27,205 nucleotides of DNA from a virus, in UHGV virus genome UHGV-0267347; one strand, 5' to 3'. A program made the position numbers and the translations under genes. The notes beneath the pieces were generated by a model, which made no database searches, was not told the origin of the DNA, and saw only the letters and a program-made list of their open reading frames with translations. Below are positions 2,833 to 27,205 of this stretch, piece after piece (the first letter of the stretch is position 1; every line of letters begins with the position of its first letter).

Positions 2833-2983
2833 TTGTAGTTATCTCTCACCTCGCCGATACAGGAGGTGCAAATTGAGGGAGTACCACGAACCGCAAACCA
2901 GAAGCGGAAACGTAAAAGAAGCCGAGCCAATGGATAAGTACTAGATAGACCAAGCCCAACGAATACCAAGGCCCAGAAATGAC

Positions 2984-3006: not shown

Positions 3007-3178
3007 AAGCTGCGTGGCGAAGTAACCACTCTTAACACAGTAATCTAGAAAATGCGGACCGCGTTAGTGATTTTTATCTGTTTTTCCATTATTTTTTTGC
3101 CACACAGCTTAAAACGAAAAATAAAGCAGGCGTTGCCAAACCTCACGGTGACAGTTGGATTAGAATGAGGACATACTT

Positions 3179-4198: not shown

Positions 4199-4212
4199 TC
4201 GGGCTTCAATAA

Positions 4213-4605: not shown

Positions 4606-4607
4606 AA

Positions 4608-5603: not shown

Positions 5604-5604
5604 C

Positions 5605-6414: not shown

Positions 6415-6433
6415 ACTTCGTTTCTCCTTTTGC

Positions 6434-9228: not shown

Positions 9229-9237
9229 GACCGACCT

Positions 9238-9576
9238 CTATTTCCCTGAATTTACGACGAAACTGTTCGAGCGGGCTGAAGCACTCATGCTCATAGCCTT
9301 CGCGGAGGTAGATAACTCGTTGTGTTTCCGGCTCCCAACGAATGACTCTGACGGGCACTCCGTAGTGATCTTTGAACCAGCGGTTAACTTGTCGCAAAGG
9401 ACTGTCTCCTTCTGCCGGTTGAAATCACCCACAGCCCACTCAGCAAAGCTGTGGGTTACAATTTCCCTGTCACCTGGTACATTAACTGCATAGCAATACT
9501 CCACCTTCGCTTTTCCACCCGGTACAGGAAGCGCAATCAGTTGCGAGCGACGGTAGTGTGTTGTTAAACTGTTCAT
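9238..9576 (-). CDS. hypothetical protein (112 aa)
   Basis: Only long frame on the operon strand between the CII-like gene and the replication gene; low-complexity C-terminus; a competing plus-strand ORF (9221..9493) exists. Confidence 0.4.
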
Positions 9577-10181
9577 GCGTTAGTTTCTCCACAGTCACGA
9601 CACGCCACGGCGCCCGGAGCTGCACACTCGCGGGCGTCATTACTTTCTGAAATGCAAAAGATTTTGTAGACCAGTGCTGCATGCTCCTGCAGCTTCGAAA
9701 TTGAGAGATACAGCTCGTCGTTAATTGCTGTCTTCTCATGCGGTTCCACCACACCGTCTTCGATTGCCGAACGAATCTGTCTGGAATAACTGCCAATCTG
9801 TTCAATGACTTCCAGCAGGCGCTGGTTAATATCGGCGTTGTCCACATCCTCGACGTCAGGAAGAGACACAAAGACGCCATTTGCAGACTGCGCCACAGCG
9901 TCAGCAATGAAGTGAGTTCCACCAGCACGTTGCAAAATCATTGCCCATCCCAGCGGGAAAATCTGATCGCCATCGGCACGAAGGCGGTTAAATAATGCGT
10001 TTTCTGTTACATCCAGCCAGTCAGCTGCTTCAGCGTAACCACCCGGCAACGCTGCGATAGTTTTTCTGACAGCTTTCACGTACCACTCAGGCTGTTTTTC
10101 TACTTTCCAGTGATGCTTACCCACGGTTAGCCTCATCGTTCTGTGGTTTCTGTTAATCGATTTATCCATTAGATTTTTCAT
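9573..10181 (-). CDS. CII/YdaT-like regulatory protein
   Basis: Start chosen at ATG 10181 (MKNLMDKS...), just past the Cro-like stop; position directly after cro and before the replication genes is that of cII/ydaT-type regulators; no catalytic motif. Confidence 0.55.
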
Positions 10182-10362
10182 AAAGCTCAGGTTTAAATGG
10201 CAACCGTCCGCAAGTTCTATATGCAGCTTCTGCTGCACGTCCTTTTGGAATTAACTGGCCCGGACGGTTTCGCCACTGATAAACGGCTTCAGTTGTTATG
10301 CCAAAAAAAGCAGCAACTTTCTCAATACTGCCGAAGTAGCTTTCGATATCGTCAGTTGTCAT
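10162..10362 (-). CDS. cro: Cro-like HTH protein (YdaS-like)
   Basis: 66 aa, HTH with YQW...LIP pattern; divergent from the CI gene across an operator region. Confidence 0.75.
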   Translation of the reverse strand: MTTDDIESYFGSIEKVAAFFGITTEAVYQWRNRPGQLIPKGRAAEAAYRTCGRLPFKPELYEKSNG

Positions 10363-10459
10363 ACGCCCTCCAAACTAAGTTTTATTAGATGCTAATTACA
10401 AATCTATCTTTGGTCAATAAAAACTAAGATTACTTAGCAATTCAAGAAATGGTGCTCCT
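10363..10459. promoter_or_regulatory. OR-like divergent promoter/operator region
   Basis: Two 14-bp palindromes built on CTAAG half-sites: CTAAGTTTTATTAG (10375-10388) and CTAAGATTACTTAG (10424-10437), between divergent cro-like and cI starts. Confidence 0.5.
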
Positions 10460-11086
10460 ATGGAAACGGTTGGTCAGCGTATAAAAGCTCTGAGAAGAGT
10501 TACCGGAACGTCCCAGAAAGAATTGGGTAAATTTTGTGGAGTAAGCGACGTTGCTGTGGGGTACTGGGAGAAAGACATCAATACCCCTGGTGGGGAGGCA
10601 CTTTCGAAATTAGCGAAGTTCTTCAATACGTCAATAGATTACATTCTTTATGGTGCTGAGTTTGAAGGCAAACTCGTCACAAACATGCGCAGAGTTCCTG
10701 TAATATCGTGGGTTCAGGCTGGGCAGTTTACTGAGTGCAGGGCAGCAGAAGTGTTTAGTGAAGTGGACAAGTGGGTAGATACATCATTAAAGATTGGTGA
10801 TAACTCATTTGCATTAGAGGTTAAAGGTGACTCCATGACTAACCCTAATGGCCTCCCAACAATACCAGAAGGCGCAACAGTGATTGTAGATCCAGATGCA
10901 GAACCTCGTCATGGAAAAATAGTCATCGCTCGACTTGATGGAACAAACGAAGCTACAGTAAAAAAATTAGTCATCGATGGCCCTCAAAAGTTTTTAGTGC
11001 CATTAAATCCTCGGTATCCCAACATCCCTATCAATGGTAATTGCCTTATCATTGGTGTAGTCAAAGGAGTTCAATACGAACTCTAA
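10460..11086 (+). CDS. cI: CI-type repressor (XRE HTH + S24 LexA-like peptidase)
   Basis: N-terminal HTH (QKELGKFCGVSDVAVGYWEKD), C-terminal GDSM serine motif (VKGDSMTNP) and downstream Lys (VKKLVIDG), characteristic of autocleaving phage repressors. Confidence 0.9.
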   Translation: METVGQRIKALRRVTGTSQKELGKFCGVSDVAVGYWEKDINTPGGEALSKLAKFFNTSIDYILYGAEFEGKLVTNMRRVPVISWVQAGQFTECRAAEVFSEVDKWVDTSLKIGDNSFALEVKGDSMTNPNGLPTIPEGATVIVDPDAEPRHGKIVIARLDGTNEATVKKLVIDGPQKFLVPLNPRYPNIPINGNCLIIGVVKGVQYEL

Positions 11087-11098
11087 GACCTCTCTTCT

Positions 11099-11166
11099 CT
11101 AACTAAGGCACCGAACTAAGAAAAGTTTGGTGTTTTCTCTTGCCATAATAACTAAGTTAAGTTAGA
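11099..11166. promoter_or_regulatory. OL/pL-like operator region (CTAAG repeats)
   Basis: CTAAG at 11103, 11116 and 11152 plus CTAAGTTAAGTTAG, immediately downstream of the cI stop; mirrors the OR half-sites. Confidence 0.4.
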
Positions 11167-11251
11167 TTTTATATCAAAGATAACGAACAGGCAGGACGCC
11201 CACGAAGTAGCCGCCTGGGGCATATGAAGTCCAGGATGATTCGTTAGCAAC

Positions 11252-11275
11252 AAAAAAGCGCCCTACAGGACGCTT
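11252..11275 (-). terminator. intrinsic terminator (minus-strand sense)
   Basis: aagcgccc-taca-ggacgctt hairpin preceded on the plus strand by AAAAAA, giving stem + UUUUUU for a leftward transcript; would shield cI from the antisense gene at 11512-11946. Confidence 0.45.
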
Positions 11276-11333
11276 AGCTCTTTAACAATCTGGTCCCCAT
11301 CAACAAGTAACTGATAACTTGAGGAGGTGTGAA

Positions 11334-11540
11334 ATGCACAAAACAGAACCCAAAATCGTCGCGCCTGGCTACACAGATGAGGAAATTTATGAGTGGATGA
11401 CAAAGAAGCTGGCAGCTATAAACCAGCTTCGTGAAGTGCTGTCTTATCGACAGGAAACAATAGACTCCTTAAAAAAACTGGATCAGGAAATCACGGTTTT
11501 ATCACAGGATGTTACTTTAGATATTGTGCAGACAAATTAG
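11334..11540 (+). CDS. hypothetical small protein (68 aa), first ORF after the pL-like region
   Basis: ATG at 11334 preceded by GAGGAGGTG SD; coiled-coil-like sequence; overlaps the 3' end of the opposite-strand 144-aa ORF, so it is uncertain. Confidence 0.35.
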   Translation: MHKTEPKIVAPGYTDEEIYEWMTKKLAAINQLREVLSYRQETIDSLKKLDQEITVLSQDVTLDIVQTN

Positions 11541-11946
11541 GATCCCATTCATTTTCGTCAAAATCATCAAAGTGATGAATTTGTGATCTCCAGTCTCGAT
11601 AATCTAAAAATTTCTGGGCGGTTACGCTTATTTTATCAAGTGTGAGTTCATCCTGAATTGAAAGAAGAAGTTCATCAAATTTCATCTCATTAATCTGTTT
11701 TGGCATCCAGTGATGCTTCATCAGAATAAGGTGAACCAGAGCCTTTTTCCCATTCAACTGATTATAGGGAGTGCCGAATTTCTTCCGGTGCTCATGTAAG
11801 ACAAGGTCCAGAAGAGTAAGTAATGTTGCCCTTGATTCAACTTTGCTTATTTCGACTGATGACACTACCCCACTGATTTCAATGCCCCGATACTTTCCAA
11901 CATTTTCACAGTGGGATTTGTACAGCGTGTAGATATTACCGGACAT
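11512..11946 (-). CDS. hypothetical protein (144 aa), antisense to the early-left operon
   Basis: ORF track; AT-rich; intrinsic terminator on the same strand about 240 bp downstream; no motif recognised. Confidence 0.5.
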   Translation of the reverse strand: MSGNIYTLYKSHCENVGKYRGIEISGVVSSVEISKVESRATLLTLLDLVLHEHRKKFGTPYNQLNGKKALVHLILMKHHWMPKQINEMKFDELLLSIQDELTLDKISVTAQKFLDYRDWRSQIHHFDDFDENEWDPNLSAQYLK

Positions 11947-12059
11947 TTCTTTTCCTTTTGCGTTGTTGGGGATAACCAGATTAACCGAATCCTTGTTGTT
12001 GGGGAATAACCAGGTCCACCTCGCCTGATGTGGCTAAAAGCAGGCACATAACAGCTAAG

Positions 12060-12440
12060 TATTTTCAACCAGAGAGAATCCTTAGCGTTGTGGTGAATGC
12101 GGCTCAGCGCACGCGGGTTAAGGTTGAGGCTGACAGTCGACCTTCTGTGGATACCCACCCGCCTGGTGTGCAACCTTCGCCAGGCACCGGGAGGCACCCG
12201 GCACCACAACTTTATGCTGTGTGTAGTCCTGGCGGTACCAGTTTGTACCCTTGCTTCCGGCTGGTACCGTCCTTTTTACAAAACAGAGAAGAGCATCACC
12301 GGACGACGGGCTCATAACCCAATCCATCCGGGCGGCTGCCACCGCAGGTGTTCTTCTCTGTTTTGTGGAGAAACTAACCGCCCCTACGGGGGCATTTATG
12401 GAAATGTAATTGACTCAATAATCGCCGGACGGTGAGGGCT
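12060..12440. other. GC-rich, highly structured non-coding element (candidate structured RNA or regulatory DNA)
   Basis: No convincing ORF (three mutually overlapping Pro/Arg/Gly-rich frames); multiple inverted repeats: gcctgg/ccaggc (12160-12185), cggtaccag/ctggtaccg (12233-12269, 9-bp stem), aaacagagaaga/tcttctctgttt (12280-12362) enclosing further GC stems. Confidence 0.35.
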
Positions 12441-12490
12441 TCCTTTTACCCGAATTCAGCGCGGTGCAGCGCATATACGTGGAGAACAAA

Positions 12491-13027
12491 ATGTCATTTA
12501 TTAAAACTTTTTCCGGGAAGCATTTTTATTATGACAGGATAAATAAAGACGACATCGTTATTAACGATATCGCGGTTTCCCTTTCAAATATCTGTCGCTT
12601 TGCAGGACATCTTTCACACTTCTACAGTGTCGCCCAACATGCGGTGCTTTGCAGCCAGCTGGTGCCGCAGGAATTTGCTTTTGAAGCTTTAATGCATGAT
12701 GCAACAGAAGCATATTGCCAGGACATCCCCGCACCACTGAAACGACTTCTTCCTGACTATAAACGGATGGAAGAAAAAATAGACGCCGTAATCCGTGAGA
12801 AATACGGGTTACCTCCTGTTATGAGCACGCCAGTGAAATATGCCGATCTCATTATGCTGGCAACCGAACGCCGCGATCTCGGGCTTGATGATGGCTCTTT
12901 CTGGCCTGTGCTGGAAGGTATCCCGGCAACAGAGATGTTCAACGTGATTCCACTGGCTCCAGGCCATGCCTACGGGATGTTTATGGAACGCTTTAACGAA
13001 TTATCGGAGTTACGCAAATGCGCATGA
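12491..13027 (+). CDS. HD-domain phosphohydrolase (YfbR-like 5'-deoxynucleotidase family)
   Basis: AQHAVL ... ALMHDATEAYCQDIP matches the H...HD...E..D metal-binding signature of YfbR-type HD hydrolases; ATG 12491 with GGAGAA SD. Confidence 0.75.
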   Translation: MSFIKTFSGKHFYYDRINKDDIVINDIAVSLSNICRFAGHLSHFYSVAQHAVLCSQLVPQEFAFEALMHDATEAYCQDIPAPLKRLLPDYKRMEEKIDAVIREKYGLPPVMSTPVKYADLIMLATERRDLGLDDGSFWPVLEGIPATEMFNVIPLAPGHAYGMFMERFNELSELRKCA

Positions 13028-13380
13028 ATGTTTTCGAAATGGAAGGGTTTCTTCGTGGGAGATGTGTACCGCGAGATCTGAAAGTGAATGAAACGGATGC
13101 TGAATACCTGGTGCGTAAATTCGATGCGCTTGAAGCTAAATGTGCAGCACAGGAAAACAAAGTAATACCAGTGTCAACTGAACTGCCACCAGCAAATGAA
13201 AGTGTTTTGTTATTCGATGCTAACGGAGAAGGCTGGCTAATTGGCTGGCGTTCTCTCTGGTACACCTGGGGACAAAAAGAAACCGGAGAATGGCAGTGGA
13301 CATTTCAGGTCGGGGACCTTGAAAACGTCAATATCACTCACTGGGCAGTAATGCCAAAAGCACCGGAGGCTGGAGCATAA
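13018..13380 (+). CDS. hypothetical phage protein (120 aa, Trp-rich)
   Basis: ORF overlapping the stop of the upstream gene; WLIGWRSLWYTWGQKETGEWQW motif; function unknown. Confidence 0.55.
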   Translation: MRMNVFEMEGFLRGRCVPRDLKVNETDAEYLVRKFDALEAKCAAQENKVIPVSTELPPANESVLLFDANGEGWLIGWRSLWYTWGQKETGEWQWTFQVGDLENVNITHWAVMPKAPEAGA

Positions 13381-13685
13381 TGACCACTTTTACCGACAAA
13401 GAACTGATTAAAGAAATTAAAGAGCGTATCAGCAGCCTTGACGTGCGAGACGATATTGAGCGCCGTGCTTATGAAATCGCACTCCTATCTCTGGAAGTAG
13501 AACCAGATGAACGCGAAGCTTATGAATTATTCATGGAAAAGCGTTTTGGTGACTTAGTAGATCGTCGGAGAGCAAAAAACGGCGATAACGAATACATGGC
13601 ATGGGATATGACTCTCGGTTGGATCGTCTGGCAGCAACGAGCTGGTATCCATTTCTCAACAATGTCACAGCAAGAGGTGAAATAA
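13380..13685 (+). CDS. hypothetical phage protein (101 aa)
   Basis: ATGA overlap with the upstream gene, acidic helical protein; function unknown. Confidence 0.55.
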   Translation: MTTFTDKELIKEIKERISSLDVRDDIERRAYEIALLSLEVEPDEREAYELFMEKRFGDLVDRRRAKNGDNEYMAWDMTLGWIVWQQRAGIHFSTMSQQEVK

Positions 13686-14035
13686 TGGAGCCATACAGCC
13701 TCACACTCGATGAGGCCTGTCATTTTCTCAAGATATCCAGACCGACTGCCATTAACTGGATACGCACAGGGCGTCTTCAGGCAACACGCAAAGATCCCAC
13801 TAAGAATAAATCTCCTTACCTCACAACACGACAAGCCTGCATTGCGGCTCTTCAGTCTCCGCTGCATACTGTCCAGGTGAGCGCGGGTGATGGCATAACA
13901 GAGGAAAGAAAATGTCACTCTTCCGCAGAGGTGAAATATGGTACGCCAGTTTCACATTGCCGAACGGTAAAAGATTTAAACAGTCTCTTGGAACAAAGGA
14001 CAAAAGGCAGGCGACAGAACTCCATGACAAGCTAA
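13685..14035 (+). CDS. xis: excisionase-like HTH DNA-binding protein
   Basis: Internal ATG 13685 ([31 protein letters not shown]): Xis/AlpA-type HTH directly upstream of and overlapping int, as in lambda xis-int. Confidence 0.55.
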
Positions 14036-15075
14036 AGGCTGAAGCATGGCGGGTCAGCAAACTTGGTGAAATACCTGATATAACGTTCGAGGAAGCGTGT
14101 GTCAGGTGGCTTGAAGAGAAAGCACATAAAAAATCACTGGACGATGACAAAAGCCGGATCGGATTCTGGCTTCAACATTTCGCAGGAATGCAACTAAGAG
14201 ACATTACTGAATCAAAAATTTATTCAGCAATGCAGAAAATGACGAACCGGCGTCATGAGGAAAACTGGAAACTCAGGGCAGAAGCATGCAGAAAAAAAGG
14301 GAAACCTGTTCCAGAATACACGCCAAAACCAGCGTCCGTTGCAACGAAGGCTACGCATCTTTCATTTATAAAGGCCCTACTAAGAGCCGCAGAGCGTGAA
14401 TGGAAAATGCTGGATAAGGCACCAATTATTAAAGTGCCTCAACCAAAGAATAAACGGATCCGCTGGCTGGAGCCCCATGAAGCACAAAGGCTGATTGATG
14501 AATGTCCGGAGCCATTAAAGTCTGTTGTTGAATTTGCACTGGCAACAGGCTTAAGACGCTCGAACATCATCAACCTTGAATGGCAACAAATAGATATGCA
14601 GCGCCGGGTGGCATGGATAAACCCGGAAGAGAGTAAATCAAACCGCGCAATTGGCGTTGCGCTGAATGATACTGCATGTCGCGTATTGAAAAAACAAATC
14701 GGGAATCATCACCGTTGGGTATTTGTGTACAAGGAAAGCTGTACCAAACCAGACGGAACGAAAGCGCCAACAGTAAGGAAGATGCGGTATGACGCAAACA
14801 CAGCCTGGAAAGCGGCGCTGAGACGGGCTGGTATTGATGATTTCAGATTTCACGACTTGAGACACACCTGGGCAAGTTGGCTGGTTCAAGCCGGAGTCCC
14901 GTTGTCAGTGTTACAGGAAATGGGAGGCTGGGAGTCTATCGAAATGGTTCGTCGATATGCTCACCTTGCACCTAATCACCTTACCGAACACGCACGGCAA
15001 ATAGACTCGATCCTGAACCCATCGGTCCCAAATTTGTCCCAGTCAAAAAATAAGGAAGGTACTAATGATGTGTAA
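13912..15075 (+). CDS. int: tyrosine integrase
   Basis: 387 aa; C-terminal catalytic signature R...HDLRHTWAS...GGW...VRRYAHL (R-H-x-x-R-Y), transcribed toward the att core. Confidence 0.95.
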
Positions 15076-15089
15076 CTTATTGATTTAAA

Positions 15090-15135
15090 TGGTGCCGATA
15101 ATAGGAGTCGAACCTACGACCTTCGCATTACGAAT
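15090..15135 (-). other. thrW: att core: 3' 46 nt of a tRNA-Thr(CGU) gene (anticodon loop to CCA); partial tRNA, 5' half absent
   Basis: Minus-strand sense AUUCGUAAUGCGAAGGUCGUAGGUUCGACUCCUAUUAUCGGCACCA: anticodon loop UUCGUAA (CGU), T-arm GGUUCGACUCC, acceptor 3' strand + CCA; matches recalled thrW 3' half; the expected complementary 5' acceptor strand is missing upstream. Confidence 0.7.
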
Positions 15136-15439
15136 TATAAGAATCCGCTTCTAATTCAAAGTATTACCCCATCAACACTGCGCTCACACGTCCCACCACA
15201 TCAAAACATGTAAAGCCTTGCAAGCCATTGTGAGGCCTTATGTGTCTCAGTTTTGTCCCACCTTGTATTATGACTTGCATAGCCAATGAAGATAAATGTG
15301 ACGACAAACGGCGCAGCAGTCTTCTTTTCCTTCATACTTTCCCCACCCAGCATGCATACCTTCTACCATAACTGTAGTTAATGTCTGTTATGAGCGAGGA
15401 GCGGACATTGCTAACAGCGTTCTGTGCGAATCAAGCAGG

Positions 15440-16858
15440 TCAGTCAAATAATTTATCGTCTGCCTCATAAGTTTCCTGAAACGTGAGGCTATTTGCATTA
15501 GGAACTGGATCATCTGCGTGTTGAATAATGGTTTGGCTTTTTAAAATGCTTTGCTTGAAAAAGCGTTTGCAAATTATCTCACCGTTAACTGGAAGCCAAT
15601 GCGTGGCCTCTGGAAATAGCGTAGAATTTATAGGGTTTTCCGCGTTTGGGTTATGAAAAATTTCAATTTCTGAAGTCCATGGCTCATAACTATAGGGTTC
15701 CCAAAGACGACGATATTGGTCACTGGCTACATCCATACTGAAGGGGATGCCACGTAAGGCTCCCGCCGAGTCATTAGCGAACTCACCAATCCTTATGTAC
15801 CGGTAGCCTTTGATCAAGGCGCCGGAAGAAACAGGTACTCTGCTCAGCTTGGATAAAGTCGCAGAATTAGAAAAAATAACCGCCGAGAGAGCAATGTTAT
15901 CGTGTGAATTAAACAAACCAGCACGGATTTTGGGGTCGCTTTTGAGGCAGTCGACAGTTTCTGCTACAGCCACAACCTTCCCATCTATTTCTTTTTCTCT
16001 TCCATAAAATCCATAGAGATAGGTAATTAGAGCCTCACGGCTCCACATCATTGAACCGGGAGCGTGAAAGTCCGCGATAGCAATGGCAAACGGCTTTCCT
16101 TCGACATGAGTGAGACTAGTGTAATTCTTGCGCAGTTTATTCCTTAGGGTCCGCGCATAACGTTCAGCCGCAATTCCCGATACCCTGTCTTGTCGGTTTA
16201 AAGGAAACGTCAGAGGTTCAGCCCTGGCATGGTCGTAACGGTCCGATGGATTAACTGTCACAGCTTCAATCCAGGCTTCTCCACCTGACCTGTTTATTAC
16301 GTGAAAATCAGGAGAGGGGTACTCCTGAGTGACTAACAACCCCTGTTCACGGAAACTGGCCAGGAGCATGGCTTCCCAAATACGTGTATGAAAGTTATCA
16401 GTCTGGCACTCTCTTGCCCAGTGAGTATCCGGATTTGGCATTGCAAGATACAATTGATTAAGCATCCATGCGCCAGGTGCTCTACAAGGATGTCCAAGTA
16501 GTTTGAATATGTTACTTGGTTGTCTACCTTCAACATCCCAAAGCGGTGCGCGCCTGCGTGTACCCGGAGGCAAAGGGACGCGACTCGCAGATTCATCGCA
16601 TGCCTCACGTATAATTGTGAAAGCCTCTTCTTCACTATATGAATCTGACTCCCAGCGTAGCACTGCCCATACATCGTCCTCACGACGCCGCATTATAAGA
16701 ATGCCATGCTTTCCGCTGTGACAATTACGTGTCAGTGCACAGACTGTGACATGATCATGACTACCCCAAGCGCTAACTGGAGGATCATCCCCAAATCCCA
16801 GACCTCGGGGAAGCGATAAGGCATATACATCGAATACACAAGACGGAATGGGAGTCAT
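15440..16858 (-). CDS. hypothetical protein (472 aa), unknown function
   Basis: Long ORF, no motif recognised; 5' third more GC-rich than the rest; directly downstream of the 156-aa ORF on the same strand. Confidence 0.65.
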   Translation of the reverse strand: MTPIPSCVFDVYALSLPRGLGFGDDPPVSAWGSHDHVTVCALTRNCHSGKHGILIMRRREDDVWAVLRWESDSYSEEEAFTIIREACDESASRVPLPPGTRRRAPLWDVEGRQPSNIFKLLGHPCRAPGAWMLNQLYLAMPNPDTHWARECQTDNFHTRIWEAMLLASFREQGLLVTQEYPSPDFHVINRSGGEAWIEAVTVNPSDRYDHARAEPLTFPLNRQDRVSGIAAERYARTLRNKLRKNYTSLTHVEGKPFAIAIADFHAPGSMMWSREALITYLYGFYGREKEIDGKVVAVAETVDCLKSDPKIRAGLFNSHDNIALSAVIFSNSATLSKLSRVPVSSGALIKGYRYIRIGEFANDSAGALRGIPFSMDVASDQYRRLWEPYSYEPWTSEIEIFHNPNAENPINSTLFPEATHWLPVNGEIICKRFFKQSILKSQTIIQHADDPVPNANSLTFQETYEADDKLFD

Positions 16859-16962
16859 CGAAAAGTCTCACTTAATGAGCCTAAAGATAGCGGCAAGCAG
16901 ACCATAAAAGACCGGTCCATAAGTAGGTACCTTCTGCATTCGTTAGCGATTTTTTGACTTTG

Positions 16963-17433
16963 CTAGCAGTCAAACCCAACAATTAACTCTTCAGTAATCT
17001 CACTTAAGGAGACTATGCCTTTATATCCAGTTTCAACGTATGGGACCACCCTATCACTCCATGCCTCTTCTGCTTTCCATGCAGTCCAGGGGATCAATTT
17101 ATCGAATTTGCTTTCATGAAGAAATAGTATTGAAATTCTATCATTAGGCACATGTTTTATAAACTGAGTTGGAAAACATTTATAGGCATGTTCTTCCCAA
17201 TGCTTAGTCCCATAACATCTGTAGTCAAAAAAGGAAACACAGTTACGCCGTCTGAAAAAACCATTTGATGAGTTTCCAAATCTTGACATCTGCAATAATT
17301 CCGAGTTTGGGATCAAAGCGCCGGACTGTTTTATGAGAGACATATTATTTTCAGGCGTAACATGGAACACTCTTCCTAAAAGAGCAGGTAATATATCATT
17401 GTGAGATATGATTTTGAGTTGACTGACTTTCAT
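16963..17433 (-). CDS. hypothetical protein (156 aa), unknown function
   Basis: AT-rich ORF, no motif recognised; probable first gene of a two-gene operon with 15440..16858. Confidence 0.55.
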   Translation of the reverse strand: MKVSQLKIISHNDILPALLGRVFHVTPENNMSLIKQSGALIPNSELLQMSRFGNSSNGFFRRRNCVSFFDYRCYGTKHWEEHAYKCFPTQFIKHVPNDRISILFLHESKFDKLIPWTAWKAEEAWSDRVVPYVETGYKGIVSLSEITEELIVGFDC

Positions 17434-17588
17434 ATATCTTGACCATCGAAATATGGATTAGTGCAATACGTTAACATAGCATAATGTCACTAGCGTCTCC
17501 TATTGGCACATAGCAGTCCTAGAGACACTGGCGTAAAGCCATGGAGGATCGGTGGGAGGAGGCGCTAATCCTTTCATACAAAAAATAT

Positions 17589-17686
17589 GTAAAATCAATA
17601 ACGGCTGTAAATCATTCAATACTCGCCCTATCGGAAGTTCACCAGCCAACCGCAGCACGTTCTTGCATACGACGTGGCTGCGGTTT
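17589..17686 (+). repeat. 98-bp direct repeat, copy A (hairpin-containing)
   Basis: gtaaaatcaataacggctgtaaatcattcaatactcgccctatcggaagttcaccagccaaccgcagcacgttcttgcatacgacgtggctgcggttt; about 92% identical to copy B; contains imperfect inverted repeat cagcacgt...acgtg(g)ctg. Confidence 0.8.
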
Positions 17687-17784
17687 CAACTCCCGCCAAT
17701 CATGATTGAGCGATAGTAGAATAGTAATAACAAAAATTGGTAGTTATCAGGCTCAGCAAAACACCAATCGGGTGGTGAGGATAC

Positions 17785-17808
17785 AAAAAAGGCACCCGCA
17801 GGTGCCTT
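17785..17808 (-). terminator. intrinsic terminator (minus-strand sense)
   Basis: aggcacc-cgca-ggtgcct hairpin preceded by AAAAAA on the plus strand (stem + U6 for a leftward transcript). Confidence 0.45.
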
Positions 17809-17869
17809 AAATACTACCCCTTAGCAGCGCACTAAAAATGCCCACGCCTCGTACCCGTAATCATGAGCA

Positions 17870-17974
17870 TCAAGGACTTTTTTTGATTTCCCACGCACCT
17901 TGCGGTAACGGCAGAAAACCCAACGGAACCCTTTGGGCGCCGCTTTTGAAGCAATTGATTTCAAACCCATTCAT
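17870..17974 (-). CDS. candidate small ORF (34 aa) with canonical SD
   Basis: TAAGGAGGTG then 4 nt then ATG; MNGFEINCFKSGAQRVPLGFLPLPQGAWEIKKSP; lies between the ImmA-like gene and a terminator; not in the ORF track (below its size cut-off). Confidence 0.3.
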   Translation of the reverse strand: MNGFEINCFKSGAQRVPLGFLPLPQGAWEIKKSP

Positions 17975-18093
17975 AAAACACCTCCTTACCAAGAGAGATT
18001 TTTCCCTTGAACATCTTCCCTGAAGGTGTTAATTTCAGGCTGTCTATCGAAGCTGTTCACGGTGGTGATGCCTCTTGGATTCATCACCTAAAG

Positions 18094-18129
18094 CCCCTTG
18101 CACTGGTTGGCGCCAAGCAAGGGGTTTTT
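18094..18129 (+). terminator. intrinsic terminator hairpin (strong in plus sense) abutting the ImmA-like stop codon
   Basis: ccccttgc-(15 nt loop)-gcaagggg followed by TTTTT. Confidence 0.5.
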
Positions 18130-18649
18130 ACATTTTGTCTAGCTGATAACGCGCTGCCACTAATGAAACTCCGCATGCCTCAGCAACATCCTCAGCCGTC
18201 ATACCTTTTAAAATACTGGCATGCATAGCTGGCACTAATAACTCACCACTAAAACATTTAGCTTGCCATTCACTACTCTCAAAAGGGCGGATTTTTACCC
18301 CTGGGGCAGAACGAGCAAATGCGATGTTCCTGTGCATAAGAAGATGACCCAGTTCATGCGCGGCAGTCATCCTATCTCGCCCTACCCCATTCAAAGCGCC
18401 TTCGTAAATGTCTTCGCGCAGAATCAATAAATGTTCCTGTGGGTATGTAAGACCATGCGTCTCTCCCATTTCTTTCATACCACCAATGTGGAACTCAAAA
18501 TCCGGGATCAACTGAGGCAATGCGAACTCAATTACCTCCATTACAGGGAATTTAAGCCCAGTAATACCAAATGCGCTCCGCAGAGATCTGACGATAGAAC
18601 GTATTGATTCACGATTCTGCGGAGGTACACGATAATCTTGTCCGCTCAA
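18128..18649 (-). CDS. ImmA/IrrE-family zinc metallopeptidase (COG2856-like)
   Basis: HEXXH motif in AAHELGHLLMH; 173 aa; immediately downstream of an XRE HTH gene. Confidence 0.85.
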   Translation of the reverse strand: MSGQDYRVPPQNRESIRSIVRSLRSAFGITGLKFPVMEVIEFALPQLIPDFEFHIGGMKEMGETHGLTYPQEHLLILREDIYEGALNGVGRDRMTAAHELGHLLMHRNIAFARSAPGVKIRPFESSEWQAKCFSGELLVPAMHASILKGMTAEDVAEACGVSLVAARYQLDKM

Positions 18650-18657
18650 GCCGCCTC

Positions 18658-19017
18658 CTACTGCTGTTTTCGATTCAAAATCTGTCGTAAATTACGGAAG
18701 TCTTCTTCATTTAACTCATCAAAACTACGAGCGAACGCAATTGCGACTTCACGAGCGTGGCCATTCTTACCTGACAAGCTGATCTCTACTGACTGCTGAG
18801 AGTCACGAGCTGCACTGATAAGCTTTTCTTTTTGTTTTTCATCCGCATTAAAATAGCTAATGATGCTATCAAGCACGGGCTTAGTGACCGCCCTTTTACC
18901 AGTTTCGATCGCTGAAAGATAAGACGAGGTCATGCCCATAGCCTCAGCCATGCTTTTAAGCGTAAGCCCCAAGTCTATGCGCATTTTTCTTACTGTCTTA
19001 CCAAACGGCGTTAACAT
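18658..19017 (-). CDS. XRE-family HTH transcriptional regulator
   Basis: N-terminal HTH (KMRIDLGLTLKSMAEAMGMTSSYLSAIETGKR); 119 aa; paired with the metallopeptidase gene. Confidence 0.85.
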   Translation of the reverse strand: MLTPFGKTVRKMRIDLGLTLKSMAEAMGMTSSYLSAIETGKRAVTKPVLDSIISYFNADEKQKEKLISAARDSQQSVEISLSGKNGHAREVAIAFARSFDELNEEDFRNLRQILNRKQQ

Positions 19018-19197
19018 AGTTGCTTCTCCAGTGTGTCAAAGACCTTCAGTACTTCAGGTCTCATTTTAAGTTAACACTCCACAGACATGAAATCAACAAA
19101 ATTCTGTTAATTTTTTTATCTTGCTTAGTTTATGAGTTTACATCTTATGTTGATAGAACTGTTGGTTGGTGAAGAATCATGGGGAAATGAGTCGTAA

Positions 19198-19353
19198 TCT
19201 CTTGATATTTTATGGTATGGAGATGAGCGTCAAAGCTACCATAGCGATGATTTTCCTGTTACCTACACCGCAGATAAGGATTCTGCTAATGCTTTTGTTC
19301 AGGAGACTCTGAAAGATACCTGGGAGTCTGCTGACGAGTGGTTTGTTCATTAA
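19198..19353 (+). pseudogene. 3'-terminal remnant (51 codons, no start codon) of an unidentified gene
   Basis: Open frame bounded by an upstream stop, reading [51 protein letters not shown], protein-like composition, ending 8 bp before repeat copy B. Confidence 0.35.
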
Positions 19354-19360
19354 TTAATAC

Positions 19361-19458
19361 GTAAAATCGATAACGGCTGGAAATCATTCAATACTCGCAC
19401 TATCGAAAGTTCACCAGCCAGCCACAGCACGTTCTTGCATACAACGTGCCTGCGGTTT
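19361..19458 (+). repeat. 98-bp direct repeat, copy B
   Basis: gtaaaatcgataacggctggaaatcattcaatactcgcactatcgaaagttcaccagccagccacagcacgttcttgcatacaacgtgcctgcggttt, followed by a T-run. Confidence 0.8.
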
Positions 19459-19549
19459 TTGAGACCGGTCCGATCATCAAACGAAACATAAAATTAGCTC
19501 ACACTATGAGGAAAAGTATCTTTTTTACTATGTAAATTCAAAGGATTAG

Positions 19550-20419
<870 letters not shown>

Positions 20420-20439: not shown

Positions 20440-20480
20440 AACCGCAGCACGATCTTCTTGCATACGACGTGCTACGGTTT
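20440..20480 (+). repeat. direct repeat, partial copy C (hairpin core only)
   Basis: aaccgcagcacgatcttcttgcatacgacgtgctacggttt shares the 3' hairpin core of copies A and B; lies between the GIY-YIG stop and the pin stop. Confidence 0.7.
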
Positions 20481-21034
20481 CATTTATCTCCGACCGGAAA
20501 CTTCTTATACAGTGTCGATATACCAACATCATAGATGATCGCCACCTTCTGGCGAGGAACGCCTGATGCAATTAATCGTCCGGCCTGCTCCCATTGTTCT
20601 GGTGTAAGTTTGGGGCGACGTCCACCAATTCGTCCCTGTGCGCAAGCTACTTCCAGTCCAGCTTTTGTTCGTTCAACAATCAGTTCACGCTCCATTTCAG
20701 CCAGGGCACCCATCACATGAAAGAAAAAGCGCCCCATTGGGGTACTGGTATCAATTGAATCCGTCAGACTACGAAAGTTGATGCCTCGTTCGCGCAACTC
20801 CTCCACCAGCACGACAAGATGCCGCATACTGCGCCCCAGTCGGTCCAGTTTCCAGACCACCAGCGTATCACCTGCCGATAATGTCCTGAGCAGTTTTTTC
20901 AGTCCCGGCCTTTCGGACTTTGTACCGCTTATCTTGTCTTCAAAAATCAGCTCGCATCCTGCACAGTTCAGCGCATTACGTTGTAGATCTGTGTTCTGGT
21001 CATTTGTTGACACACGTACATAGCCAATAAGCAT
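20480..21034 (-). CDS. pin: DNA invertase, Pin/Gin/Cin-family serine recombinase
   Basis: Start at internal ATG 21034; MLIGYVRVSTNDQNTDLQRNAL...LVVWKLDRLGRSMRHL...GRFFFHVMGALAEMERELI is near-identical to recalled e14 Pin; 184 aa. Confidence 0.95.
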   Translation of the reverse strand: MLIGYVRVSTNDQNTDLQRNALNCAGCELIFEDKISGTKSERPGLKKLLRTLSAGDTLVVWKLDRLGRSMRHLVVLVEELRERGINFRSLTDSIDTSTPMGRFFFHVMGALAEMERELIVERTKAGLEVACAQGRIGGRRPKLTPEQWEQAGRLIASGVPRQKVAIIYDVGISTLYKKFPVGDK

Positions 21035-21088
21035 GGTAGATCTCCCTGACAAAAGCAGGAATGATGCCATTTGCTCGTTATTTCTGCA

Positions 21089-21114
21089 TTTTCATAAACG
21101 TTGGTTTGGGAGAA
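21089..21114. other. 26-bp invertase crossover site (pix/gix-like), site 1
   Basis: Minus-sense TTCTCCCAAACC-AA-CGTTTATGAAAA; inverted repeat of site 2; half-site resembles recalled gix TTATCCAAAACC. Confidence 0.7.
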
Positions 21115-21555
21115 GCGGCAAAACGAAATGTGGGCAACGGGGAAAAACAAATCCCTGATATGTCTTTCTGGACGGTTACTGGTGGCAATGGAAATTTTGT
21201 GATTCGTCAACCTGACGGGCTAATCATTCAGATGGTTACTGTAAGTATAAGCGGTCCAGTGGCGATGAATGGAATGACTGATAATGCTTATGCCATTACA
21301 GGTTCTAATAAGTCTTATATTGCCACAGCCACATTGCCCTTTGTATTTCCTAATAAGGTGCTGGGCGTTATCCCTCTGGTATCAACAACAGCTTATGGTG
21401 GTGTATCCAGTAATATTACAGGTTCATACGCGACTGCGGTTTGTTCTTTTGCCGCTGTCAGGGGGAATAATACGATTGTGTTCAAAGTCGACAAACCACT
21501 GAATGCAGCCTTTCCTTCAGATACCAGCGTCTCAGCGTTAATCATTGGACGGTAA
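21103..21555 (+). CDS. alternative tail-fibre C-terminal variable segment (Sv'), promoterless and start-less in the current orientation
   Basis: Frame is open through crossover site 1 and encodes ...NVGLGEAAKRNVGNGEK...; after inversion it would fuse in frame to the constant N-terminus ending ...[10 protein letters not shown]. Confidence 0.7.
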   Translation, partial: GLGEAAKRNVGNGEKQIPDMSFWTVTGGNGNFVIRQPDGLIIQMVTVSISGPVAMNGMTDNAYAITGSNKSYIATATLPFVFPNKVLGVIPLVSTTAYGGVSSNITGSYATAVCSFAAVRGNNTIVFKVDKPLNAAFPSDTSVSALIIGR

Positions 21556-22578: not shown

Positions 22579-23360
22579 GCGGCCCTCACAATATAATTAA
22601 AGGCGATGTTACGTGGACGATTTTCATTTGCTGTTGGAACAACATTTGCCGCCGAGAAGTGAACATCTTGTCGGATTTTTCGGTCATTAGCGTATGTCAT
22701 AGATACGTTGATGTTATTCCGGACTGAGGTACCTCCGTAAAAAGCACCACTCACACTTTGAACATCAACAATTGCATTAATTTCGCTGTTTACGCGCAAC
22801 TGACCAAAACCGCCAGTAATGTTTCGAATAGCATCTCCTTGCGCTGAAAGCAGAGTTCGCCCACTATCCACACCACGTTCATCATCCCAGCCACGAATAA
22901 ACTCACCACGTAAATCAGGCAATTTATTTGTCGGATAAGCCTTTGCCAGTTCCGGGTATTCTTCAGCAGAAAAAGCGGCACCGTTGCATTTCAGCCAGCC
23001 TGTTGGCGGAGTGGCTGAAGGCCACGGAACAGGGACACCAACAGGTAATGCAGAGCCTTCTCCCAAACCAAGGTTTTCGAGAGCCGTTTTCACCGTGCCA
23101 TCCGATTTGATATCGCCAAACGGATTCTTGCGGCTTAACAGCAGCGCGCGAAGCGCGGTAAGTAGCTGGTCGTGCCGCCCCTTCTCCAGGCTGGCACCGG
23201 ACGCCTCCACAACGCTGCAAAGCTCCTCCTGCAACATGTCAAAGTAGTCATCATCCAGATCGGTGGCAGGCGTGCCGGTCTGGGGGTTACCACGGGTAAA
23301 ACCGTTCTTACCCGCGCCGAACTTATCCTTCTGCGCGGTTTTCGTGTCTATACGATGCAT
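22575..23360 (-). CDS. tail fibre protein: constant N-terminus (~98 aa) fused to invertible variable C-terminus
   Basis: Crossover site 2 lies in frame inside the gene; arrangement Sc-Sv-tfa / tfa'-Sv' / invertase matches the Mu G, P1 C and e14 P segments. Confidence 0.8.
23058..23083. other. 26-bp invertase crossover site (pix/gix-like), site 2, inside the tail-fibre gene
   Basis: Plus-sense TTCTCCCAAACC-AA-GGTTTTCGAGAG, imperfect palindrome; encodes the conserved LGLGE junction of the tail fibre. Confidence 0.7.
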
Positions 23361-23363
23361 GGA

Positions 23364-23948
23364 TTACTCCGGATATTTAAAAATTACGTAGGTATGCGAC
23401 GGGCAGAGTTTGTTAAGCACACATTCGACAACTGTGTCGCCCCAGATACGCAGTGCGGAATCACAGGGATCGCCACATGTCATCCAGGTGGTGTTGGTGG
23501 CGGCTGGCATGTTGACCTGCCAGTAATACCGCCATTCAGGCGCGTTCACAGCGTCAGTACAGGCCGATGAGCAGGTGAACGTGCTTTTGTCGTATCGCGT
23601 GATGGTGGCATCTGGTCTGCCCAGGGCAGCAAGCTGTGCAAGATAAAAATCCTCGTTGATGCCGCCCGCCAGGTTAACCTTCGCATCCAGCCGTTGCTGA
23701 CGCTGGCGAAGGGTCTGTGTCCCTGCGGGAATACATTCATCCGGCAGACCGCACAGACGCTCCCAGCGGTTTATCAGTTCAGTGGTGGTGCGCGGATCCA
23801 GCTCCCGCATCAGGGCATCCGCACGCTGATGAGCACGAGTTAATGAAGGTGCCGCACCGGCAATCGCCGGATCGCTGGCTGACCACGCCGGACCGGGGGG
23901 CAACAGTGCCGACAACAGACGGATGTAATCATCGTTTGTCACGTCCAT
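23364..23948 (-). CDS. YmfQ-like tail/baseplate protein (DUF2313, Mu gp48-like)
   Basis: 194 aa, same length and gene position as recalled e14 YmfQ, between the J-like gene and the tail fibre. Confidence 0.75.
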
Positions 23949-24997
23949 GAAATCGTCCCCAGAACCGCCAGTTCATTTTTTGCAATGGAGATATTGTCCG
24001 CCGGTGCAAGCAACTGATGGCTGTATTCCCCGTTCGCACCGGAAATCGCCTCACTGATACGCGACACCTTCAGTTCTCCCTGCGGATAACCATCACGCAG
24101 CAGGAACGAACGCAACTCCGCGGTGATGGCGGCTCGTATTTCCGGTGTATCCGGCGTAACGCGGATATGAAAATCCACCGTATGTGCCACCGGCCTGAAC
24201 ACATACAAATCAGAGCCTGCCACCGGAGCCAGTGGCCCGATATGTTGTCTTGCCGCCGTTTCCGTTGATTCTTCCGGAATGGGATTAATCAGGTCGCTGC
24301 TGGCAATCATCACACCGACAGTCCCCGTTCCCATCCAGTGACGGTATGTCCATGCGCGGGTAATGCCGGGCACTTCTTTAGCCCAGACGACATAGTCCCC
24401 GTCAGCCCCGCCCTGCGGCGTCCAGTAATACCGCTCAATGACGCGGGCGCGCCACGTTTCCAGCTCTTCAGTATCAAATCCGCCTGTCAGGGTGTCAGCC
24501 ACACCGGAAGACGGCAGACCATTAACCGGCGTGACCAGGATTAATGCCGTACCGTCGTCAGCGTTACCGACCGCGCCTGCACTTGAGCAGGCGATCGGCA
24601 CGCGCAGGACACCACCGGAGCTGGTTGCATCGGCAGTTGCCGTGTACTGCACCAGGTCATCGCGCTGAATAACACTCCCGGCGGTCACCTTCAGGCCATC
24701 GCTGACACCTTCCCAGCGCATATACCCGCTGGCAGCCGTGGCCCCCTTGCGCGGACACCGTTTCATCGCAGCATGTCGCGCCAGCCAGGACTCATCGCAC
24801 AAGTCAGGCAACATGTTCATTGCCAGATAATCGATGTACCCGTAAACCGTATGCAGCGCCGCCGCATACACCATTGCCCGCACGTCTTCATCCATGCGCC
24901 GGAGCGTGTCGCTGACGTCCAGCCTGGCGAATAAATCGTTACGGAGCATACTGATATTTTCTGCCAGCGTCGGACGCTGAAATTCACTGTCCGCCAT
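23939..24997 (-). CDS. baseplate J-like protein (Mu gp47 / P2 gpJ family)
   Basis: 352 aa; position and size within the baseplate module; call from recalled homology only. Confidence 0.8.
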
Positions 24998-25412
24998 GCG
25001 TTATCGCACTCCACAGATCATCAAAAGAAATCATTACCGGTCCGTCACGACGCCAGAGAGTGATACTGTTACCCAGTTCATTAATCCCGGTGCGGCGGAT
25101 ATCCAGATCAATACGGGACACCACGCCATCATCAATCATCCATTGCAGGCATTCGCGGATATACCCCCTTACCGTCTGCACCAGCTGATTGGTCAGTTTG
25201 CTGCGCTGAAGCAGCCACAGTCGGGAGCCGTAACGGTCATTCTGTACCGCAGGCCAGGTATCCCCCCACCATCCCATCGGGACGTCGGCATTGTCATCAG
25301 GTTCAGCCCGCCGCCAGGTGAACATGGAAATCACCACGGCACGGGTCAGCGGATCCAGCGGTGCGCTGGCGCAGGTGCGTTTACCGTTCACCGTCAGCCA
25401 CAGTTCCATCAT
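24984..25412 (-). CDS. baseplate protein (Mu gp46-like / GPW-gp25 family)
   Basis: 142 aa, between the V-like and J-like genes, as gpW/gp46 in P2- and Mu-type baseplate modules. Confidence 0.65.
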   Translation of the reverse strand: MMELWLTVNGKRTCASAPLDPLTRAVVISMFTWRRAEPDDNADVPMGWWGDTWPAVQNDRYGSRLWLLQRSKLTNQLVQTVRGYIRECLQWMIDDGVVSRIDLDIRRTGINELGNSITLWRRDGPVMISFDDLWSAITHGGQ

Positions 25413-25957
25413 GCCTCCATCGCTTTATCAGGTTTGTCGGTGTTACTGCCCTGACCGTTCTCTCTGTGACGATGCCAGTTATAGGCAAGCCTCATCGCTG
25501 ACATGGTGGTGCCGCTGGAGTCGCACAGGTCTTTCACCTGTCCGGTCACTTCCAGGTCCATTTCAAAACGAGCCTTAGGCGCATTGCGAAACGTGATCGT
25601 TTTCCCTGCACCGTCCACCACGATCCCCGCCCGGGTCAGCGTCACGGACTGCCCCTGATCGTCATAGACAGCCACCTCACCCGTCTGCAGCCCTTTCAGG
25701 CGGTAGCGCCGGTCCGACACCGTAACAACCACCGCATGAGAACGGTCACCATCCGGAAACAACACCACCGCTTCCGCACCGCTGTTTGCCCTTGCGGTAA
25801 AACCGTAGGGTTCAAGATGTTCAACCCCGGCTTTGGGTTCACCGGCAATCAGGGACACATCCACGGTCTGACATTTCGTGGCGGCACTGATGCTTTTCAC
25901 CACCGCCCGCCCAATCAGGCCGAGGAGTTGTCGCTGTATGGTTTCAATCGCCTTCAT
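25409..25957 (-). CDS. baseplate spike/assembly protein V (Mu gp45-like)
   Basis: 182 aa; ATGA overlap with the downstream gene; position in the module; call from recalled homology only. Confidence 0.75.
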   Translation of the reverse strand: MKAIETIQRQLLGLIGRAVVKSISAATKCQTVDVSLIAGEPKAGVEHLEPYGFTARANSGAEAVVLFPDGDRSHAVVVTVSDRRYRLKGLQTGEVAVYDDQGQSVTLTRAGIVVDGAGKTITFRNAPKARFEMDLEVTGQVKDLCDSSGTTMSAMRLAYNWHRHRENGQGSNTDKPDKAMEA

Positions 25958-26859
25958 CAGAACGGGTCCTCCTGTACTCTGGCTTTTTTCTTTTTCCGCG
26001 CGCCGGGAGCTTCGGGTTCAGGCAGATAAGCATCAGGTGGGCCGACACGGATTTCCGTCAGGGTGCCATTCTGGTCCTGAGTAAACGTGACTTCCGAGAC
26101 AAGCAGTTCGGTATTGTCGAAACCACAGACCGGATCGAAGACAATCACCCGCTGGTTGGGCTGCCACAGCGTACCGTTACCCTGTCGCCAGCCCTGCACC
26201 ACATAGGTGGTTTCATCCGTCCGCGCCGCCCGTTGCCGGGCTTCAAAGTCCGCACGGGCAATACAGCCTGCCCCCGTAGCCTGCCCTGGCTGCCTGATAT
26301 ACATCGGACGGTAACGGGCAATAAATGCGTCCTCTGTGCGGGCCCGCAGCGCGGTGGTGGTGGCCTCACCGAAATCATCGTCGTTTCCGGCACGCTGCCC
26401 CGCCACCTGGTAAACTGAAAACCGCTCCCGGATACTCTTCTCCGTATCACAGGAAAGGATATTTTCCCCGAGTACCAGCGCAGTATGTGCCCGCGTTGAG
26501 CCAATACCGCCAATCACCAGCCTGCCGTGCGGGTCGTCGTAAGCCAGTGCCTGCTGCTGACCGAGTATTTTGTTGATTACCTCAATCACCGTTTCACCGT
26601 GATCAGGCTGAACATCAGGAATAACACCCGACGGCGCACCGCTGTTCACCACCTCAATGCCGAAAGGCGCAGCAAGCGCCTGCGCAATCTGCACCAGCGA
26701 GCGTCCGTTAAACTGTGTCGGTTCGGCTGCACAGTCAATCAGGTCAGCCGTCAGACTGCGTCCGGCAATACCGGTACTGACCGAACGGGCATCGTAACGA
26801 ACGGGCGTCGCCTCCACCCAGCCGGTGATCACCAGCTCATCACCAATCAGTACCTCCAC
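25957..26859 (-). CDS. Mu gp44-like tail/baseplate hub protein (P2 gpD family)
   Basis: 300 aa; N-terminal L.(V/I).G.....GW motif shared with the N-terminus of the plus-strand ORF at 27109; weak SD, so the start is uncertain. Confidence 0.65.
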   Translation of the reverse strand: MEVLIGDELVITGWVEATPVRYDARSVSTGIAGRSLTADLIDCAAEPTQFNGRSLVQIAQALAAPFGIEVVNSGAPSGVIPDVQPDHGETVIEVINKILGQQQALAYDDPHGRLVIGGIGSTRAHTALVLGENILSCDTEKSIRERFSVYQVAGQRAGNDDDFGEATTTALRARTEDAFIARYRPMYIRQPGQATGAGCIARADFEARQRAARTDETTYVVQGWRQGNGTLWQPNQRVIVFDPVCGFDNTELLVSEVTFTQDQNGTLTEIRVGPPDAYLPEPEAPGARKKKKARVQEDPF

Positions 26860-26865
26860 TTTTGA

Positions 26866-27111
26866 ACCGTTTTTAATGCGCTGTTTCTGGCGCTGCGCCG
26901 GGTGAAAGCAGATCTGAATGCGGATATCAACACGCGCCTTGAACAGTCTGCACGGATCATTCAGCGCACACCGGATGAGGTTTTACCCGCGCTGGTGCTG
27001 GCGGCGACCTGGTTTGATAACGCGGCGCGTGACGCGGACATTATCCGGCGTAATGCCATTACGCATCCCGGCTTTGTGCCGGTGATCCCTCTGAAGGTGC
27101 CAGTGCAATGA
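26866..27111 (+). pseudogene. 3' fragment (about 81 codons) of a Mu gp43-like (DNA circulation) gene; 5' part missing
   Basis: Frame open from 26866 with no plausible upstream continuation (upstream is antisense of the gp44-like gene); ends in a TGA that overlaps the ATG of the next gene. Confidence 0.45.
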
Positions 27112-27205
27112 ACGACAATGTCACGCTACGGGTAAATGGCCGGGAGTGGAATGGCTGGACATCGGTGCGCATCGGTGCCGGTATTGAACGGCTGGCGCGG
27201 GATTT
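27109..27205 (+). CDS. N-terminus of a second gp44-like baseplate gene; continues beyond the right edge
   Basis: MNDNVTLRVNGREWNGWTSVRIGAGIERLARDF parallels the N-terminus of the minus-strand gp44-like protein. Confidence 0.55.

Follow-up and report, generated by a model that had tools for sequence, protein, structure and literature searches.

An inverted joint at a 6-bp repeat between gp43 and gp44 in an SfV-type prophage sequence: contig-end chimera or template switch in the cell

The Shigella and Escherichia phages SfV, SfI, SfII and SfIV carry a baseplate block, orf15 to orf20, whose products are homologues of Mu N, P and gp45 to gp48. The block is collinear in every phage record, and orf15 (Mu N-like) is coupled to orf16 (the Mu P-like hub) by an ATGA overlap. 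In SfV, gp43 corresponds to orf15, and RefSeq genomes give it the name 'DNA circularization protein'; gp44 corresponds to orf16, whose annotation reads 'similar to phage Mu tail protein P'. We describe here a 27,205-nt stretch of DNA from the virus genome UHGV-0267347, referred to throughout as the window, which matches this block with ~97% nucleotide identity over positions 23057–26881. The Pfam families, the gene order and the overlaps are the same, except that 387 bp across the orf15/orf16 boundary appear to be reversed in the window, and neither gene is whole.

Joints of this inverted kind are well described as products of DNA handling. In multiple displacement amplification (MDA), inverted chimeras within the same molecule are the main artefact: more than 85% of chimeras are inverted, and the joints lie at 2–21 nt of complementarity (Lasken & Stockwell 2007, PMC1855051). 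Libraries prepared by sonication and end repair likewise give chimeric reads at natural inverted repeats (PMC10908179).

Layout of the window and its baseplate genes

The features of the window are listed in Table 1. It begins 50 nt inside an HNH gene that is common to ~1000 genomes and adjoins the terminase genes, and it ends inside gp44. The 48-bp core containing part of thrW (context 13912–16858) joins the integrase end of an SfV/e14-type phage to the cargo end of the same type, which in other genomes abuts the chromosome on the yagP side. This core is an attP-like joint, arising either from tandem prophages at thrW or from an excised circular form of the phage. The cargo island contains a 472-aa protein that matches PD-T7-1 (E = 3e-69), a GIY-YIG protein that matches PD-T4-3 (E = 2e-140), an HTH and M78-peptidase pair resembling the CapH/CapP regulators, and a conserved 156-aa protein with no family match. 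Related loci swap parts of this region for EcoRII restriction-modification, reverse transcriptase with SLATT, AbiTii or Vpar_1526-type genes. The ORF between the holin and Q genes appears to occupy a second variable cargo slot, which in related prophages holds an ATP-dependent nuclease with a cytosine methyltransferase, or a DUF6731 protein.

Table 1. Positions of features in the window (nt; L001 and L002 are intact prophages used for comparison)
Feature	Position	Strand	Remarks
HNH, lysis, Q, early region and integrase part of SfV/e14-type phage	1–15135		
339-aa ORF between holin and Q genes	3179–4198	plus	no PADLOC match
Integrase gene	13912–15075		
48-bp core including 3' 46 nt of tRNA-Thr thrW	15088–15135		cargo end of SfV-type prophage follows directly
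Opposite end of same-type phage: defence cargo, pin, fibres, baseplate	rest of window after 15135		
Defence-gene cargo island at prophage end	15440–20419		
Pin invertase crossover sites	21091–21115 and 23057–23081		core ...AAACC..GGTTTGGGAGAAG, given also as AAACSTTGGTTTGGGAGAAG
gp44 3' part, 925 nt (codons 53–359 + stop), 5'-truncated	25957–26881	minus	collinear with intact 1080-nt gene: L001 99.9%, L002 100%
Junction	26876–26881	.	ATGCGC, 6 bp, common to both parental sequences; from base-by-base comparison with both parental stretches
gp43 3' end, last 236 nt (78 codons + stop)	26876–27111	plus	100% identical to L002 8690–8925
gp44 5' part, first 98 nt (codons 1–32)	27108–27205	plus	100% identical to L002 8922–9019; runs off window end

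The baseplate genes lie on the minus strand at the right end, in the order gp48/YmfQ, J/gp47, gp46, gp45, followed by a piece of gp44. All genes from pin to gp44 codon 53 are full length (J 352 aa, gp46 142 aa, gp45 182 aa), and the remainder of the window is clean, with no frameshifts and 100% identity to relatives. The window was compared with three independent assemblies, each of which has an intact prophage (L002, L007 and L009). Positions 23057–26881 correspond to L002 12901→9077 (3825 nt, 0 mismatches), and positions 26876–27205 to L002 8690→9019 (330 nt, 0 mismatches). Both arms are also identical to the prophages L007 and L009, over the same lengths, and L005, from a fourth assembly, shows no difference across the 1482 nt and 330 nt that flank the joint. 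Because both arms match one prophage perfectly, they come from a single parent and not from two diverged modules. At the joint, the sole difference between the window and an L002-type prophage appears to be that segment 8690–9076 (387 bp) is reversed.

The first-pass annotation of this DNA had regarded the element on the left as an e14/Mu-like remnant. This description has no support, given that its genes are full length and that 3.8 kb of it is identical to intact prophages. The e14-type remnants of E. coli K-12 share with the window ymfQ/gp48, the stfP-type fibre, the tfa genes, pin with its invertible fibre segment, and a lambdoid early region of the yfdN–yfdT / ymfL type. In such remnants (for example L010), however, J is cut and fused to a terminase fragment and gp44 to gp46 are lacking, whereas J, gp46 and gp45 are complete in the window. 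The pattern that marks these remnants, with J truncated and gp44–gp46, head and tail genes deleted, is not seen among the genes that lie inside the window.

The left gp44 piece is ~97% identical to SfV orf16. Its 300-codon ORF (25957–26859, minus strand) has Mu P/gp44 domains, and had been annotated as a gp44-like gene starting at 26859. The alignment to the intact 359-codon gene extends past this point, however, and ends at 26881. At 26859 the GTG encodes Val60 of intact gp44, and is thus internal; reading from a stop in the flipped DNA, it is the first start-like codon in frame. The piece is without the first 52 codons (155 nt), and its translated sequence corresponds to intact gp44 from residue 53 on. 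Intact gp44 relatives are 359 aa long and have all domains. A Pfam search of the left ORF found domain 2 (Gp44-like_2nd, 90.9 bits) and domain 4 (GpP_4th, 67.1 bits) to be complete, while GpP-like_1st matched only at positions 52–85 of 85 (23.7 bits, under the 27-bit cut-off). The four-domain architecture of the Mu P/gp44 hub (PF21683 + PF22255 + PF21929) with a complete first domain is therefore not present in this ORF. Its assignment to gp44 is by 100% nucleotide identity to the L002 gene and by position, with gp45 immediately downstream.

The second gp44 piece is on the plus strand. As the first-pass annotation had correctly recorded, it begins at an ATGA (27108–27111) in which the gp43 stop overlaps a gp44-type N-terminus, MNDNVTLRVNGREWNGW.... 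This piece supplies the gp44 stretch that is absent from the left arm, minus 57 nt (L002 9020–9076) just beyond the window end. The N-termini of the two pieces had been described as paralogous, on the basis of the pattern L.V.G....GW, but the best local alignment between them scores 19, compared with 18.9 ± 3.9 for shuffled sequences (p = 0.47). Comparison with L002 instead shows that the two pieces (codons 53–359 and codons 1–32) are non-overlapping and complementary parts of one gene, not paralogues. The window holds two fragments of one gp44 family member, and no complete gene.

Between the joint and the ATGA overlap lies a piece of gp43. The plus-strand open frame begins after a TGA at 26863–26865 and ends at 27111. 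It had been described as the last ~81 codons of a gp43-like protein; the frame and the gp43 C-terminus are correct but the count is not, as 78 codons are native and the first three or four codons of the 26866–27111 frame are antisense gp44 sequence. The matching stretch L002 8690–8925 is the 3' end of a gene for a 457-aa PF07157 protein. The fragment represents residues ~380–457 of this protein, without the first ~380 codons, the start codon and the promoter. A Pfam search of the 81-codon frame gave no match; the PF07157 domain (DNA_circ_N) is N-terminal in the intact 457-aa protein, and is not present in the fragment. The frame is a gene fragment, identified by its 100% DNA identity to the intact gp43 gene. 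In L001 the gp43-type gene is 1374 nt long and lies upstream of the 1080-nt gp44. Throughout the intact homologues, the 26866–27111 frame forms the C-terminus of a gp43 protein of 442–458 aa and is not a complete small gene, which agrees with the earlier reading of this frame.

A 69-aa ORF within the fragment (26902–27111) is called as a gene of its own in 19 public contigs. In those examined, gp43 is broken by N runs, a 17-bp tandem duplication, a 114-bp duplication, a napA fusion or an error-rich assembly. A rearrangement hotspot at L002 ~8650–8700 was considered and rejected. A look-up of the 69-aa ORF can return a contig only if its gp43 is interrupted immediately upstream of GTG 8716, and the clustering of lesions near the breakpoint is therefore a selection bias. 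Two of the lesions are described here. One Logan contig (L022) has a 17-bp tandem duplication, TGCGCTGTTTCTGGCGC, between direct TGCGC repeats at ~9976–10010 (equivalent to window ~26877–26895), which frameshifts gp43 into ORFs of 379 aa and 69 aa; this is either a separate natural inactivating allele of gp43 or an assembly error. The other (L025, position 2681, a Logan SRR497945 contig of 4388 bp) has napF, napD and a truncated napA (627 aa) joined straight onto the gp43 3' end; the fusion point is 38 nt upstream of the equivalent of the window breakpoint, and an intact gp44 then follows. It represents either a large deletion or another chimeric contig.

Position, geometry and occurrence of the joint

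The right end of the window has a head-to-head arrangement, in which the minus-strand gp44 piece meets the plus-strand gp43/gp44 piece. This arrangement, with its ATGA-overlapping frames, was pointed out in the first-pass annotation and is physically present. It is not due to chance: each arm is 100% identical to the same prophages, on opposite strands. When aligned with L001, which is an intact prophage in a complete E. coli genome, window 25900–26881 is collinear with the gp45 3' end and the gp44 gene, and window 26876–27205 matches the opposite strand of the same prophage, beginning 387 bp further on. The two parental alignments share the six bases ATGCGC. A breakpoint had been proposed at about 26860–26866; its existence is borne out, but its position is 10–20 nt further to the right, as given in Table 1.

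The parent prophage carries the 6-mer of the joint as an inverted repeat, with ATGCGC at L002 8690–8695 and GCGCAT at 9077–9082, 387 bp apart. Microhomology of 6 bp or more is rare at random inverted junctions of this region (p = 0.002), and because a 6-bp overlap is so unlikely for a random join, the joint is taken to have been primed by annealing. The partner of the left arm is the opposite strand of the same molecule, and the switch coincides with a pre-existing short inverted repeat that is longer than expected by chance. The site is not otherwise special, because the gp43/gp44 region holds 643 pairs of 6-bp inverted repeats that are comparable to the repeat at the joint. The joint lies 324 nt from the end of the window, and a further 57 nt would be needed to reach the predicted second breakpoint.

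The joint was then looked for elsewhere. Among 5426 complete E. coli genomes there was no place covering 80% or more of window 25900–27205; 1095 of these genomes had a match, and all of them align only up to 26881. The same is true for all 41 phage records with a match. A 32-mer across the junction had no match in IMG/VR, the GTDB species representatives or the JGI metagenomes, and nor did a 32-mer for the predicted reciprocal junction. The corresponding 32-mer for the native junction occurred in at least 120 IMG/VR viral contigs, which shows that the search was able to detect such sequences. Of the related loci with a gp43–gp44 pair, 136/146 cross both breakpoints collinearly, and the inverted piece was found in none of the 146. 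Exact-protein look-ups of the truncated gp44 in the contig index, using three possible starts (300, 291 and 286 aa), gave no match. When gp45, the 472-aa cargo protein, the HTH protein and the 69-aa ORF were used as queries, every contig returned had gp43/gp44 either intact or damaged in another way. Within the collections searched, the junction is private to this sequence. The zero divergence of the arms from their intact relatives implies that the event is either very recent or not biological.

These results bear directly on the suggestion in the first-pass annotation, that two related (paralogous) tail modules lay face to face, that the joint was made by deletion or by recombination between them, and that the left one is a remnant. 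The arms are indeed head-to-head. Some 1100 of the 5426 genomes carry the module, those with a match show up to 7 matching places, and the attP-like joint makes a second related prophage nearby conceivable. However, tandem prophages would sit in direct and not inverted orientation, and the attP-like joint gives nothing in favour of two inverted tail modules. The arms end only 387 bp apart in one prophage, to which both are 100% identical; they are complementary parts of one gp43–gp44 stretch of that single prophage. Homologous recombination cannot have joined them because they share no homologous positions (gp44 codons 53–359 against codons 1–32). Similarity between the N-termini is at chance level, and the left module is not degraded. 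We consider an origin from two modules to be very improbable. On the sequence comparison, the window contains one SfV-type, Mu-like baseplate module and not two, and the proposal of two paralogous modules should be given up.

It was also considered whether the serine invertase of the prophage itself had carried out a programmed inversion, using secondary crossover sites. A Pin-family invertase gene is located 6 kb away (20480–21070), and the enzyme demonstrably flips the tail-fibre segment 21096–23076, which is inverted in L002 relative to the window. The canonical Pin sites flank this ~2-kb invertible segment of tail-fibre and assembly genes, which is in opposite orientation in the otherwise identical L002. 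Segments inverted by Pin, Gin or Hin have crossover sites of ~26 bp at both ends, and occur in both orientations among relatives with their genes intact; neither feature is found for the 387-bp segment. The best match to the crossover sites at the gp43/gp44 breakpoints is 14/26, against a mean of 14.3 and a maximum of 18 for shuffled sequences, and Pin-mediated inversion was rejected on this basis. In addition, such a flip would destroy two essential genes (gp43 truncated, gp44 split), and the flipped orientation is seen in 0/5426 genomes and 0/146 related loci. The probability that Pin produced the joint is negligible.

Origin of the joint

The minus-strand genes follow the intact prophage exactly down to gp44 nt 156, where the strand switches at ATGCGC/GCGCAT. 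The match restarts 387 bp beyond this point and runs back toward it, first through the end of gp43 and then through the beginning of gp44. Such a pattern is the mark of a 3' end ...ATGCGC that primed synthesis after pairing with GCGCAT, 387 bp away on the complementary strand of that molecule. The window spans a single junction, which would belong either to a 387-bp inversion or to a fold-back.

We favour, with a modest degree of confidence, the view that the switch took place outside the cell, and that the joint is a chimera made in vitro or during assembly, at what is presumably the end of a contig. An inversion or inverted duplication that truly arose by template switching is the less favoured alternative. 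Amplification or library end-repair may have given rise to a chimeric molecule or read, or the assembly to a tip, that extended a contig end broken in repeated phage sequence. The position of the joint, so close to the end of the sequence, and the stop before the predicted second breakpoint both fit this origin. Both ends of the window lie inside phage genes that are repeated across prophages, and have the look of repeat-broken contig ends. The absence of divergence between the arms and their intact relatives, and the private nature of the junction, also point to an artefact. Low-frequency chimeric reads are normally removed by assemblers, which counts against it. The remainder of the window is of high quality, so that this is not a generally poor assembly, and a chimera offers no evident reason for the stop exactly 57 nt before the second breakpoint. 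The first-pass annotation had correctly listed misassembly as something to be excluded, and it is now the explanation that we prefer.

The flipped 387-bp segment (8690–9076) nearly coincides with a SNP-free block, L002 8689–9064, which is common to many prophage variants and is bounded by common polymorphisms at L002 8688 and 9065. This coincidence may hint at a collapsed short repeat that was misplaced during assembly. A k-mer model of the assembly (k = 31, with SNPs at 9050 and 9107) was tried as an account of where the arms end, and was dropped because its fit was inconsistent across the known variants.

The joint may instead be real in the cell: a very recent template switch would then have turned around, or duplicated in mirror image, the gp43/gp44 boundary of an SfV-like prophage that is perfect in all other respects. 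In our judgement this is less probable than an artefact. One form of this is a genuine 387-bp inversion at the 6-bp inverted repeat, by two template switches or by a break and rejoining, which would interrupt gp43 at ~codon 380, divide gp44 in two and inactivate an SfV-like prophage that is in other respects intact. The geometry is exact for such an event: the right arm is the reverse of L002 8690–9076, and the joint is on a pre-existing inverted repeat. The microhomology is non-random, and other lesions that inactivate gp43 are found nearby in relatives, such as the 17-bp tandem duplication described above. The predictions for the sequence beyond 27205 are specific, namely 57 further gp44 bases (to nt 155), GCGCAT, and then CGCTGGTTGTACGGG... 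(antisense gp43, nt 1139 downward), giving a reciprocal joint ...ACGCTTCAGCCGCGCATCGCTGGTTGTACGGG.... However, an inversion creates no repeat, hence there is no reason for the sequence to stop inside it, and an arbitrary cut of a 27-kb window ends inside a 387-bp segment only ~1% of the time. Neither the junction nor its reciprocal is present in any other genome or contig searched, and no mutations have accumulated since the event. An inversion in vivo therefore seems unlikely to us.

The other form is a fold-back, or inverted duplication, in which there is a single strand switch and replication continues, so that the right arm mirrors the left. It would run through gp44, gp45 and beyond, forming a large palindrome with a 387-bp spacer. 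Its junction signature is the same as for the inversion, and an assembler would be halted by a mirror repeat in the neighbourhood of the spacer, in keeping with a joint so near to where the sequence ends. Against this, the last base falls 57 nt short of the point where mirroring would begin, and not at or past it, and the structure is absent from the 146 related loci. Long palindromes with short spacers are also unstable in E. coli (SbcCD). Events of the ODIRA type do start in the way that a fold-back requires (PMC10766183). On balance we regard a fold-back as improbable, more so than an inversion.

The preferred reading, of an artefact at the contig end, has consequences for annotation. The source organism would then carry intact gp43 and gp44, the last ~330 bases should not be annotated as a truncated gp43 and a second gp44, and the 300-codon "gp44" ORF from GTG 26859 should not be called a gene. 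If on the other hand the joint is real, gp43 and gp44 are broken, and a widespread SfV-type prophage is unable to build its baseplate. It would be a private, strain-specific and pseudogenising inversion, with a mechanism of a known kind: the first inactivating hit of prophage domestication, caught in the act, beside a defence cargo island that the host would retain. Either way there is no new type of genetic system, and the finding is an ordinary one.

Comparison with known inverted chimeras and template switches

The joint resembles the inverted chimeras of MDA (Lasken & Stockwell 2007, PMC1855051) and the chimeric reads at inverted repeats (PMC10908179) in that the partner sequence is found within a few hundred bp, on the other strand of that molecule. 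In both the in-vitro chimeras and the window, the joint lies at a short complementarity (2–21 nt reported, 6 bp here) and the arms are otherwise free of errors. The window junction differs in sitting in the consensus, as chimeras made in vitro are generally rare and assemblers filter them out.

Junctions formed by template switching in vivo have the same features, namely an inverted joint exactly at a pre-existing short inverted repeat and a spacing of a few hundred bp. For these the cited evidence comes from yeast, and the second junction or hairpin-capped product that defines them falls outside the window; selection for amplification, likewise, is not apparent within it.
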